A DNA stretch of 10,150 nucleotides from a virus, in UHGV virus genome UHGV-0195723. One strand, given 5' to 3'. The notes below the pieces were generated by a model. The model had not been told where the DNA came from. It made no database searches and worked only from the letters and a program-made list of their open reading frames with translations. This document shows, one piece after another, positions 1,117 through 5,438 of this stretch. Within the stretch, counting starts at the first letter, position 1. The number at the start of each line of letters is the position of its first letter. The translations under genes were made by a program, and so were the position numbers.

Positions 1117-1194
1117 GATATGGGGTTTTGGTCGTTGTTAATGAGCAGAACAATCATGAACCGCCAACGACTGGATTCGCCCTTGGTTTATATT

Positions 1195-1226
1195 GGTGCG
1201 CATAATGTCTACGCGTTATGTTGAAA
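1195..1226. other. dif-like hybrid recombination site (prophage attL): GGTGCGCATAA-TGTCTACGCG-TTATGTTGAAA
   Basis: The 11-nt XerC arm is identical to E. coli dif. It is followed by a 10-nt spacer instead of the 6-nt TGTATA core, then an arm matching the dif XerD arm at 10 of 11 positions. It lies 78 bp past the hipA stop and in direct orientation with the perfect dif at 8507. Confidence 0.7.
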
Positions 1227-1263
1227 AGGCCGCTGCGAAAATCTCTCCCGCGGCGGCCTCTTT
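1227..1263 (-). terminator. Intrinsic terminator for the reverse-strand ORF at 1285..1626
   Basis: GC-rich inverted repeat AGGCCGCTGCG / CGCGGCGGCCT (one mismatch) with an 11-nt loop. Read on the minus strand the stem is followed directly by TTTT (complement of AAAA at 1224-1227). On the plus strand it is followed only by CTTT. Confidence 0.5.
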
Positions 1264-1284
1264 AGCATAACGTCATTGTGCGCA

Positions 1285-1626
1285 TCAGCTTGCGTCTTGC
1301 AGCCGTTTCCTGACCATTTCGAATGCTCGCTGCAACGTTCCTTTATCGGATATGTGCATGATTTCATTTGCCAACATTTTCAAAACATCATCGTTTAATT
1401 CTTTTGCCAGAACTAGGGCGCTCATTCCTAATGTGAATCGTGGTGATATGGGAACAGGCATATTGTCTTCTTCGAAGATGGCGTTTAATTCTTTCTGAAC
1501 AGATTTTTGCATGCTTGAAAAATCCTTTTCAATGAACAGGTTACGACATGTATTTATCAGCATATCTTTACGCTCTACGTTCAGCATGCTGTCAACCATC
1601 GCGTCGATTATTGATGAATCGCTCAT
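1285..1626 (-). CDS. Hypothetical protein, 113 aa, acidic, no transmembrane segment evident; prophage-encoded, function unknown
   Basis: ATG at 1626-1624 is preceded on the minus strand by AAAGGA about 7 nt upstream. A terminator follows the stop. No family recognised by eye. Confidence 0.6.
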   Translation of the reverse strand: MSDSSIIDAMVDSMLNVERKDMLINTCRNLFIEKDFSSMQKSVQKELNAIFEEDNMPVPISPRFTLGMSALVLAKELNDDVLKMLANEIMHISDKGTLQRAFEMVRKRLQDAS

Positions 1627-1755
1627 TGTTAATCCTTTGTTAATTATTCAGTGACTTTTCGTCTATCCAACTAATTAATACTTCAACCATCAAGCCTGCT
1701 CGATTGTTCACATTTTCGCCGCGAAGCGGTTCGGGGTTCTGTGACACCCGAACTT

Positions 1756-1781
1756 TGGTGCGGTTTCCCGCACTTATTTTT
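1756..1781 (+). terminator. Plus-strand stem-loop with T-run (terminator-like; alternatively a ssDNA origin or packaging hairpin)
   Basis: GTGCGG (1757-1762), loop TTTC, CCGCAC (1767-1772), then TTATTTTTT. It is one of three consecutive hairpins between 1717 and 1781. There is no obvious plus-strand gene upstream for it to terminate. Confidence 0.35.
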
Positions 1782-2154: not shown

Positions 2155-2184
2155 TTGCATGCACTTGTATCTGTGTGCTATAAA
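2155..2184 (+). promoter_or_regulatory. Candidate sigma70 promoter for the replication gene: -35 TTGCAT (2155-2160), 18-bp spacer, -10 TATAAA (2179-2184)
   Basis: Hexamers read directly from the sequence. Two copies of the palindrome TGCATGCA (2156-2163 and 2202-2209) bracket the -10 element. Not verified experimentally. Confidence 0.4.
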
Positions 2185-2226
2185 TTTTTCATCGGTATAC
2201 GTGCATGCAGGCATAAGGACTTTGTC

Positions 2227-3342
2227 GTGTTCTACGATTGGTTGAGTATTGAACAGGATTTTGGCTACCAATTACCCATCCTTTCAGATGTGGCTTATCA
2301 GCGCATTCATCTTGATAGCGGTGAAGCCAGTGCCTTATCTCAACCAACCTTCCAGCACCGTGGATCTTTCTGTGATGTTGTCTCGATCTCGATCCGTGGT
2401 TCAGTGTTAAAAATGACTGGAAACCCTTCCCGCTGGGGACGTCTTGATAATCTCTTTGGCCTTCCAACTGTAGATACTTGTGTAATGGTATTTAATCAGA
2501 TCCTTACTGAACTGAAATTACCCTTATTTACTAAATGTACAAAATTGATGCCAGGACAATCTAAAGAAAATGAAAAGGCTCATTTAATAACTGATGGTGC
2601 ATTGATTAAAGAACTGCATATAACATCTAATAAATCAGTAGGGAAGGGTAATGAGGATGATTATATTTCTGGCCTTTCTACACAACCCTACAGAAATAGT
2701 GTTCCCCGACTACACTCCAATGGTAAGTCAGTTGACTGGCTTTCCAAAAAAGGTAATGTCAACCTTATATACCCAACAGTATATAACAAAGCTCATGAGC
2801 TTGAGTTGCATAGCCTTGCGAAAATTAAAAATAAATTCTCAGAGGAATCTAAAGAATTTAATTACATAATAGATATTATTAATTACTGCAAGGACAACGG
2901 CATTGTCAGGTTTGAGCAGAAATTAAAGTCTCGTTTTCTTCAAAAACAATCCCTGTGCTATTGGGGACTTTCTGATTATTCTTTGTTAAATAAGTTACAT
3001 TCTGAGTTTCTTGATCTTGATGAAAAGTTATCGGTGAATGCTATGGACTTTGAAACTATTAGTGAACATCTCATTAGTCGTGGTGTCGTTGATACAATTC
3101 GAGCTGCCAATACAACAGCCATGTATGCAATTCAATGGTTTCACGGTCATTCTTTTGATTTAAATAAAAGGCAAGTAAAACAGCATCGAGCAAGATTAAG
3201 AATGATAGGGATTGACATAGCTCAAAAATGTAATGTCTCCAAATTCTCTCCTGTTGTTGTGAAACAAACAAGGGAAATTAAAGTGACTGACTGCGTTATT
3301 CCATCATGGTATTTAAAACCATCACATTTGCGTGTGGCTTAA
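2227..3342 (+). CDS. Rolling-circle replication initiation protein, gene II-like (Phage_CRI family), about 371 aa
   Basis: Synteny as first gene of the Ff-type block. It carries a KASPAK-like block (SIRGSVLKMTGNPSRWG) and a VRFEQKLKSRFL block resembling M13 pII VRFEARIKTRYL. GTG at 2227 has AAGGA 8 nt upstream and gives an N-terminus (FYDWL) aligning with the pII N-terminus (MIDML). The ORF-track start (TTG 2155) lies inside the predicted promoter. Start codon is uncertain. Confidence 0.65.
   Translation: MFYDWLSIEQDFGYQLPILSDVAYQRIHLDSGEASALSQPTFQHRGSFCDVVSISIRGSVLKMTGNPSRWGRLDNLFGLPTVDTCVMVFNQILTELKLPLFTKCTKLMPGQSKENEKAHLITDGALIKELHITSNKSVGKGNEDDYISGLSTQPYRNSVPRLHSNGKSVDWLSKKGNVNLIYPTVYNKAHELELHSLAKIKNKFSEESKEFNYIIDIINYCKDNGIVRFEQKLKSRFLQKQSLCYWGLSDYSLLNKLHSEFLDLDEKLSVNAMDFETISEHLISRGVVDTIRAANTTAMYAIQWFHGHSFDLNKRQVKQHRARLRMIGIDIAQKCNVSKFSPVVVKQTREIKVTDCVIPSWYLKPSHLRVA
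3043..3342 (+). CDS. Possible gene X analogue (in-frame internal start within gene II, C-terminal 99 aa)
   Basis: In-frame ATG at 3043 preceded by GGTGA, by analogy with Ff pX. This is purely positional inference. Confidence 0.25.
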   Translation: MDFETISEHLISRGVVDTIRAANTTAMYAIQWFHGHSFDLNKRQVKQHRARLRMIGIDIAQKCNVSKFSPVVVKQTREIKVTDCVIPSWYLKPSHLRVA

Positions 3343-4145: not shown

Positions 4146-5438
4146 ATGAAAAGATTACTTCCGCCTTTATTATTCGCATCTTTCTTTGCTAATGCTGCAA
4201 CTGATGCCGAATGCATTGCAAAACCAGAATTTGAAGCATCTATGACAAACGTCTGGAAAGATGACCAGACATTAGATCGTTATGCTAACTACGAGGGCTG
4301 TTTGTGGAATGCTACTGGTGTTGTTGTTTGTACTGGTGACGAAAATCAATGTTATGGCACATGGAAGCCTATTGGCGCAGCTATTCCTGAAGGTGGCGGC
4401 TCAGGAGGTAATGAAGGAGGAGGGGGCTCAGGTGGCGGTGATGGTGGTAACACTGGAACAGATCCAAAACCCGGATATACATATGTTAATCCTCTAGATG
4501 GAACTTATCCGCCTGGTTCCGAACAGAATCCGAATAATCCCAATCCAACGCTATATGATGAACAACCATTAAATACATGGGTTTTTCAGGGGAACAGGTT
4601 TGTAAATAAACAAGGGGCATTAACCGTTTATACTGGTTCTGTATCTACAGGCACAGACCCCGTGGTAACTAAAATTCAATATACGCCAGTTTCCTCTAAA
4701 GCTATGTACGATTTATTCTGGAATGGTAAGTTTCGGGATTGTGCTTTCCATTCAGGATTCAACGAAGATCCTTTTGTTTGTGATTATCAAGGCCAGCCAT
4801 CAGAAATTCCTCAACCTCCAGTTAATGGCGGTGGTTCAGGTTCTGGCGGTGGCGGCTCCGGTGGTGGTTCCGGTGGTGGTTCCGGTGGTGGCGATGGTGG
4901 CTCCGGTGGCGGCTCCGATGGTGGAAACACTGGAGGTGGTGACGGTGGAGGTTCTGGCGGAGGCTCAGGGACCGGAGATTTCGATTATGACCGTATGGCT
5001 AAGGCCAACAAGGACGCCATGACGGAAGAATTCGATTCTTCTGCAATTCAGTCTGATATTTCTTCCTCTTTGGATGGAACAGTCCAGAACCTTACAGACT
5101 CTGTAAAAGGCCTATCTGACAGCGTTGGCGGTCTTCTTGGTGCTGGTACTCCTGTATCTCCGGAGTTTTCTGGTGCATCTGCTGATATGCAAAAAATTGG
5201 TTCTGGTGACAGTTCACCATTGCTGGATGCTTTTACTAAAGGAAAGTTATTTCCTTCATTACCATCGGCAAAACAATGTACTCCCTTTGTTTTTGCTGCC
5301 GGAAAGAAATATGAATTCACTATAGAGTGCAAATATATTGACATGTTTAAATCTGTATTTGCATTTATTCTTTATTTCTGGACTTTTGTTACCGTTTACG
5401 ATTCTTTTGCCGGGATACTCAGGAAAGGTAAGGAGTAA
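4146..5438 (+). CDS. gIII: Attachment (adsorption) protein pIII, 430 aa, with N1 and N2 domains, two glycine-rich linkers and a C-terminal membrane anchor
   Basis: N1 segment [40 protein letters not shown] and N2 segment [16 protein letters not shown]...[12 protein letters not shown]...[21 protein letters not shown] are near-identical to M13 g3p. The C-terminal domain (GDFDY...[12 protein letters not shown]...) and hydrophobic anchor are conserved. Confidence 0.95.
4826..4972 (+). repeat. Tandem GGTGGTGGTTCC-type repeats encoding the second Gly/Ser linker of pIII
   Basis: Two perfect 12-nt units at 4860-4883 flanked by degenerate copies. A shorter first linker lies at about 4391-4450. Confidence 0.7.

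Follow-up and report, generated by a model that had tools for sequence, protein, structure and literature searches.

The 10,150-nucleotide (nt) stretch UHGV-0195723 analyzed here (the window) carries, at positions 1709-1779 of its plus (+) strand, an element of about 70 nt composed of a T-tract, two hairpins (hp1 and hp2), a TTT spacer, and a third hairpin (hp3). Our comparative sequence analysis suggests that this element is probably the core plus-strand (viral-strand) origin at which the pII-family replication initiator (Rep) encoded at 2155-3342 on the same strand, 376-445 nt downstream, starts rolling-circle replication. The original prediction had described three consecutive stem-loops at 1717-1781 on the strand expected to be packaged; all three are present as described, with their boundaries refined to 1719-1729, 1729-1753, and 1757-1774, and because all structural genes lie on the + strand, this is indeed the strand expected in virions. 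The first hairpin, hp1 (CCGC-GAA-GCGG), contains the core d(GCGAAGC) mini-hairpin at 1721-1727 and has G1729 in common with hp2. The latter, GTTCGGG-GTTCTGTGACA-CCCGAAC, has a 7-base-pair (bp) stem and an 11-nt loop at 1736-1746, and hp3, GGTGCGG-TTTC-CCGCACT, has a 7-bp stem and a 4-nt loop. As read from the sequence, hp3 is followed on the + strand by the tail TATTTTTT (1775-1782), within a T-run, TATTTTTTG (1775-1783), that overlaps the stop codon of a reverse open reading frame (ORF), ORF102 (stop codon at 1774-1776, minus [-] strand).

When positions 1700-1795 were folded as single-stranded DNA (ssDNA), hp1, hp2, and hp3 formed on either strand, with a folding energy of -16.2 kcal/mol and a z-score of -2.33 on the + strand, where 2 of 200 shuffles folded equally well, and a z-score of -2.41 on the - strand. 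A scan of positions 1117-2230 and 8100-8510 of the window identified hp2 as the sole perfect hairpin with a stem of at least 6 bp and a loop of 7-13 nt. Since single-sequence folding is just modestly above chance, the case was built on comparative data.

A sensitive blastn search with positions 1600-2160 matched the "major intergenic region" of phage If1, the Alteromonas phage phiAFP1, and a CTX-like Vibrio element, with all three matches falling exactly over the hairpins. An exact-pattern scan of viral contigs yielded 29 loci (individual loci are given L numbers below), and a structure-aware regular expression found a single copy per locus with zero spurious matches. From an alignment of 41 distinct copies we built a covariance model, R1, which detects the window element at 1709-1779 of the + strand with 89.3 bits (E 1.4e-21). 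Conservation in related phages, a check that the original prediction had proposed, was evident: more than 100 loci keep the element, and each of its three stems shows compensatory changes.

To quantify covariation, 49 distinct sequences in a model-guided alignment were compared with shuffles and slid-register controls; this alignment is fitted to the model, so structure is favored in it, and an alignment made with MAFFT gave the same picture. Paired cells amounted to 87.3%, compared to 75.3% in shuffles, and cells changed on both sides numbered 97 compared to 32. The covariation score of 0.323, versus 0.147 in shuffles, was reached by 0 of 500 shuffles, and the slid-register controls had a maximum of 0.116. 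In hp1, double changes occurred in all 3 pairs, with the GCG-N-AGC form kept and loops of GAA, GCA, GGA, or CTA. The hp2 stem was paired in 97.7% of cells and varied among GTTCGGG, GTCCGGG, GTTTGGG, GTGTGGG, GTGGGTG, GTGGGGG, and GTTGGGG, each with a compensated 3' arm. The 5' half of its loop is free, whereas the 3' half is near-fixed as (C/T)(T/A)GT(G/T/A)ACA, with variants such as ..CTGTGACA, ..CTGTTACA, and ..TAGTAACA. In hp3, double changes affected 6 of 7 pairs and at least 10 stem variants were seen around a conserved apex, GG-TTTC-CC, with G.T pairs outnumbering A.C pairs 20 to 7. As hp3 stems differ even among loci whose Reps are 90-99% identical, hp3 appears to be maintained as a structure and not as a sequence-specific site.

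No Rfam family matched the element above threshold, the DUF3577 RNA (RF02954) reaching 19.7 bits on the - strand (E 0.74) against a gathering cutoff of 42.6, and no description of the element was found in Rfam, the GenBank records examined, the phiAFP1 paper, or a literature search. Thus, while an element of this kind is known and expected in such a phage, this particular one appears to be undescribed.

We then asked which genes accompany the element, searching from Rep and from the pattern. Of 58 viral loci whose Rep shares 33-99% identity with the window Rep, 46 contain exactly one copy by R1, which in every case shares the strand of Rep and precedes it by 127-713 nt. The 12 misses include 10 loci with less than 400 nt of upstream DNA, leaving only L081 and L096 as true misses. 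The gap between the element and Rep is 2.2 kb in If1 (L001), owing to the insertion of a TnpB gene: the If1 gene at 6040-7086, 'ORF348', annotated as similar to eryA, encodes TnpB (OrfB_IS605, 4.7e-33; Cas12f1-like TNB, 1.9e-24), which indicates an IS605-type insertion between the If1 reverse ORF and the Rep gene. The pattern-first search, with one genome per species, returned true copies (33-64 bits) from Pasteurellaceae, Shewanella, Pseudomonas, and Alteromonadaceae, and a window-type Rep (50-55% identity) lies downstream on the same strand in 17 of the 17 loci with enough downstream DNA. Altogether, the element occurs together with a window-type Rep in Enterobacterales, Vibrio, Alteromonas, Pasteurellaceae, Shewanella, and Pseudomonas. 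Structural genes and left-flank gene change independently, and the element forms a mosaic junction where left and right flanks recombine independently, as expected for an origin of rolling-circle replication.

A natural swap in one group of prophages, here called L006 type, bears directly on function. In these prophages, the dif-type attP and the flanking reverse gene are the same as in the window, but the Rep is a canonical Phage_CRI protein, whose pairwise similarity to that of the window is marginal (BLASTP E 0.003, over short segments). Of 33 L006-type loci, 5 have the element at 54 bits or more, 3 have a decayed version (21-26 bits), and 25 give no match, including three (L141, L143, and L155) with remnants visible by eye; the breakpoints fall within the element or at its right edge. 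A hairpin pair of their own is present in 29 of 31 L006-type loci; with one exception, it lies 331-647 nt upstream of Rep. Its first hairpin is CGTGCAG-TGT(A/T)GGTAATA-CTGCACG, followed by TTT (e.g., L140 2147-2195; loci L138-L171), and its second is GTACCA-TTCG-TGGTAC or GTCTCA-TTCC-TGAGAC, as in CGTGCAG-TGTTGGTAATA-CTGCACG TTT GTACCA-TTCG-TGGTAC. This pair is probably the plus-strand origin of those prophages. Compared to the element, its geometry, TTT spacing, and position are identical and its second hairpin covaries too, but its sequence is different, it has no equivalent of hp1, and it is linked to another Rep clade. That the element tracks one Rep clade, and neither the host nor the structural genes, and is replaced along with Rep argues for a plus-strand origin, since a signal read by the host or by assembly proteins should ignore the Rep clade.

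The same architecture is found at characterized viral-strand origins of the pII family. In M13, the origin comprises GAGTCCAC-GTTCTTTAATA-GTGGACTC, a single T, and TGTTCCA-AAC-TGGAACA; in IKe, it comprises GAGTCCAC-TATGTTTAATA-GTGGACTC, a single T, and GTTGCA-TTT-TGCAAC, both hairpins being annotated as viral-strand origin stem-loops in the IKe record (NC_002014). One plan is thus common to the element, the L006-type pair, M13, and IKe: an 11-nt loop closed by a 7-8 bp stem, next a short spacer of T, and last a short hairpin (6-7 bp, loop of 3-4 nt), which in all four covaries between relatives. M13 and IKe also resemble the element in their pattern of conservation, with covarying stems, a free 5' half of the loop, and a fixed 3' half. 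The likeness to hairpins [D] and [E] of Ff and IKe extends to the Rep family (Phage_CRI/G2P_X_C), to a position upstream of and co-oriented with rep, and to the conserved first hairpin. Unlike Ff and IKe, the element has the GCG-N-AGC mini-hairpin on its 5' side and a reverse regulator gene between origin and rep, its hp3 varies among near-identical Reps, and no third (delta) repeat was seen.

A second comparison is offered by CTXphi, whose ori(+) hairpins lie just 3' of the reverse gene rstR and whose initiator RstA nicks the second hairpin within its loop, at G^T (PMC4439123; PMC8265649). The CTXphi nick hairpin is CCCCCG-TCTAGTATTA-CGGGGG, and VGJphi, fs1, and an Escherichia coli Rep_trans prophage have CCCCCG-N10-CGGGGG hairpins with the loops AGCTGTATCA and TCTTGTAACA. 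Loops of the CTXphi type and of the element both carry (C/T)(T/A)GT, i.e., a CTGT/TAGT motif. The layout is also shared, running from attP through origin hairpins, reverse repressor, and intergenic region to rep in a prophage at dif with a folded attP; moreover, the known (CTXphi) or proposed (hp2) nick hairpin is the second of several, with a G+C stem and a 10-11 nt loop. The two systems differ in that RstA is a Rep_trans protein while the window Rep is of the Phage_CRI/G2P_X_C type, and in the CCCCCG/CGGGGG stem and the loop length. R1 gave no score on the CTX hairpin and zero matches in the reference Vibrio phages fs1, VGJphi, Vf33, and fs2. The first lead, a blastn match to a "CTXphi" record that would have made the element the CTXphi origin, was rejected; the canonical CTXphi ig-1 is without the element, and the matched record in truth holds a variant element with a Phage_GPA Rep.

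On these analogies, replication would proceed as follows. Rep would bind the hp2/hp3 region on the double-stranded replicative form or the integrated prophage and nick the + strand in the 11-nt hp2 loop, at about CTG^T^G (1741-1743). The nick is predicted at G1741^T1742 by analogy with CTXphi, or at T1742^G1743 by position-for-position alignment with the 11-nt Ff loop and its nick position. The 3'-OH would then be extended by host polymerase with displacement of the old + strand, and once the hairpin is regenerated, Rep would cut and reseal to free circular ssDNA. The putative counterparts of Ff hairpins [D] and [E] would be hp2 and hp3, respectively, with hp1 a GCG-N-AGC mini-hairpin added in the window-type Rep clade.

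Several observations weigh against a plus-strand origin or temper the parallels drawn for it. Nicking by Rep, the nick position, and Rep binding are inferred by analogy. The best R1 score on M13 was 10.9 bits (E 0.26) and out of register, R1 found nothing in IKe, and blastn against the M13 and IKe intergenic regions and G4 oric gave chance-level short words only; because both searches miss the M13 and IKe hairpins, the link to Ff lies in geometry and Rep family and is not a demonstrated sequence homology. Likewise, hhalign of the window-type Rep against RstA gave a non-significant E of 0.12, with only a YNKA segment shared. Given its variability, hp3 is not a sequence-specific determinant like the Ff beta/gamma repeats. 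The GCGAAGC mini-hairpin on the + strand and the G.T bias of hp3 would suit an ssDNA function as well. Finally, the element stands beside non-cognate Reps in some loci: L028 has RstA, L002 has Phage_GPA, and 5 loci have the L006 type; hp3 has one mismatch in L002 and L028, and so does hp1 in L028. In L089, a phage with a pII-like Rep, 18 nt separate the element from a CTX-type hairpin. All of these may be recombination relics or composite origins.

We also observed the CTX-type hairpin CCCCCG-TCTAGTATTA-CGGGGG 18-110 nt upstream of the element in three loci (L089 2403-2491, L002 2891-3074, and L028 2839-3022), and in Vibrio loci with both structures the downstream Rep is pII-like, RstA, or Phage_GPA. 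Such a combination could be a composite origin that lets two unrelated initiator families replicate one phage or satellite.

The ssDNA features named above lead to the main rival, also raised in the original prediction, i.e., that the element is a minus-strand origin, or single-strand initiation (ssi) signal, whose + strand hairpins remain free from SSB (the single-stranded DNA-binding protein) and recruit host primase or RNA polymerase for priming of the complementary strand, either as its sole role or combined with a plus-strand origin. Three hairpins do stand in a row on the packaged strand, G.T exceeds A.C in hp3, a CTG is accessible in the hp2 loop, and the GCG-N-AGC mini-hairpin of hp1 is found again at sites of ssDNA priming, for example in hairpin I of G4 oric (PMC13037366). 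G4-type priming signals (G sites and G4 oric) share with the element three viral-strand hairpins, a GCG(A)AAGC-type mini-hairpin, and a nearby CTG. However, the hairpin order differs, the GNA hairpin being 5'-most here and 3'-most in G4, beside the start site; the CTG is not conserved, with CAG and TAG variants, and sits in the hp2 loop, whereas the G4 start site is 3' of stem-loop I; and no similarity was found to G4 oric or to the minus origin of M13 and IKe, hairpins [B] and [C], an origin type in which two long hairpins imitate a promoter and RNA polymerase does the priming. More tellingly, the element depends on the Rep clade, to which a host-directed signal should be indifferent: where the available upstream DNA suffices, it almost always accompanies a window-type Rep, across five bacterial orders, and it is absent or decayed with the other pII clade despite the same attP and flanks. 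Together with the Ff/IKe viral-strand geometry, these data make a minus-strand origin distinctly unlikely. The GCGAAGC mini-hairpin and the G.T bias make an additional single-strand role possible. We also considered a compact dual origin, in which hp2 and hp3 would serve Rep while a nuclease- and SSB-resistant hp1 and the exposed hp2 loop would prime the minus strand, a possibility that we regard as unlikely.

An intrinsic terminator as the sole function, with hp3 and its T-run ending a structural-operon or short antisense + strand RNA and hp1 and hp2 incidental, is quite improbable. A terminator scan does report 1757-1774 plus TATTTTTTGT on the + strand, the hp3 stem is G+C-rich and covaries freely as is typical of terminators, and L152 is without hp2 yet retains hp3. 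Judged by eye, however, no more than about 60% of relatives have a T-run after hp3, with none in L002, L006, L021, L022, L030, and most distant variants, so that termination would be at most a secondary role; no promoter-like site was found upstream on the + strand in a scan of 1100-2400; and the near-invariant hp2 loop and stem, hp1, and the Rep-clade specificity would be left unexplained. For the earlier suggestion that hp3 ends a + strand transcript, a consensus match exists in the window. With a plus-strand origin as the core function, hp3 and its T-run in the window may also halt + strand transcription before antisense entry into ORF102.

The proposal that the hairpin cluster is a packaging (morphogenetic) signal read by assembly proteins, although in keeping with its place on the packaged strand in a non-coding region, is extremely improbable. 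The hp2 of phiAFP1 is identical to that of the window, yet tblastn found no match to the window's Zot or secretin in that phage. In Ff and IKe, a single long hairpin immediately downstream of gene IV is the packaging signal, and that spot is occupied here by a different hairpin at 8125-8160, a better candidate; moreover, the element lies about 500 nt beyond attP in the prophage and follows Rep, not structural or assembly genes. Taken together, what stands of the original prediction is a conserved, structured cis-element in the replication region on the packaged strand, while its assignment to a minus-strand origin or packaging signal is not favored.

We also consider it very improbable that the element is the structured 3' end of a reverse-gene mRNA (- strand RNA) or a binding site of the reverse regulator. 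The element starts 1 nt past the ORF102 stop codon and the - strand RNA fold has a z-score of -3.05. Against this, the neighboring gene varies (ORF102-like, RstR-like helix-turn-helix, a 140-amino-acid membrane protein, or none) while the element is constant, and L072 and L086 have no reverse gene at all, with the element 127 nt from Rep; furthermore, no U-run follows on the - strand, and wobble pairs favor the + strand.

With respect to its setting, the window is a piece of E. coli chromosome carrying a 7.3-kb inovirus prophage, a relative of phage If1, at dif. Strains without an insert at this place match both flanks, 1-1194 (hipA end) and 8507-10150 (fimA-like gene), at 99.7-99.9% identity, and a perfect dif site at 8507-8534 marks one prophage end. 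At 1194-1287 (+), two dif-like sites in inverted orientation fold into a long hairpin that has a bulge of 5 nt in the central region (folding energy -30.6 kcal/mol, z-score -6.5), resembling the folded single-stranded attP of CTXphi; this attP block is about 90% conserved across more than 25 related loci. The prophage is rare, as among 5426 complete E. coli genomes a single one reaches 80% coverage of the window or more; this genome, strain SW071618 (NZ_CM129854.1, 95.8% identity), matches the window at five places in its record. In locus L018, tandem copies are spaced 7309 nt.

The slot between attP and the hairpin element is filled in the window by the reverse ORF113 (1285-1626, - strand), which has no family match, and holds a variable reverse "cargo" gene in other loci: a TIR-domain protein, an AbiJ_NTD4+DUF7014 protein, or a SIR2_2 protein (slots at L036 3082-3945, L038 4004-4945, and L039 4610-5962). 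These cargo proteins look like defense genes. Between the element and Rep lies the reverse ORF102 (1774-2082, - strand; phrog_2503, no assigned function), with homologs in the equivalent position in many loci, as rstR is placed in CTXphi; its N-terminus looks like a ribbon-helix-helix regulator. Rep itself (2155-3342, +), with its conserved region starting from about 2224 (VFYDWL), matches Pfam G2P_X_C (6.2e-24) and Phage_CRI (1.7e-4) as well as the phrog_702 replication protein (1.5e-104), and is 51% identical to the phiAFP1 Rep. The remaining genes encode an ssDNA-binding protein, major coat protein, attachment protein, pVI-like protein, Zot/pI, and secretin. The 8125-8160 hairpin is imperfect, immediately follows the secretin gene, and shares 82% identity with If1 4844-4889, and four small hairpins at 8215-8331, including a second GCGAAGC at about 8263-8269, are conserved in L010, L019, and L030; both regions are candidate sites of the packaging signal and the minus-strand origin.

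Beyond intact phages, the element is carried by 688 of 5426 complete E. coli genomes and by 441 plasmids. The plasmid matches raised the possibility of a plasmid backbone priming signal of the conjugative-plasmid ssi kind; it was rejected because all three contexts that were inspected, two on plasmids (one from PLSDB, one from E. coli) and one on a chromosome, were relics, consisting of a reverse cargo gene, the element, and an ISNCY-annotated insertion sequence (IS). On the basis of these three contexts, most of the 688 genomes and 441 plasmids probably hold relics. The ISNCY-annotated IS, with the end TTTGTATATAATATCATTGAAG, lies within hp3 in L038 (~5054) and L039 (~6054) and just past the hp3 T-run in L036 (~4066); these two distinct insertion points at one hairpin suggest that the IS may target hp3. 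We also rejected the ends of records PQ189297 and PQ189303, which fall inside the hp2 loop, as physical nick ends. The study behind these records used three border methods, one of which runs from the first to the last gene, and this method presumably set the ends, since a predicted reverse ORF terminates in a TAA stop codon that the TTACA of the loop supplies.

Plus-strand origins have been mapped for few filamentous phages, e.g., Ff, IKe, and CTXphi. The element would provide a signature in sequence and structure, including where the nick is predicted, for a large Rep clade whose members occur in E. coli, Klebsiella, Vibrio, Alteromonas, Pasteurellaceae, Shewanella, and Pseudomonas, and would be of use in annotating inovirus prophages and their relics and in marking module boundaries in mosaic phages; phagemid or ssDNA-production vectors beyond the Ff system are a further possible use. 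While the accepted view of how such phages replicate is unchanged, the results suggest a rule for the pII family, in which each Rep clade would have its own hairpin pair and the geometry stays constant.

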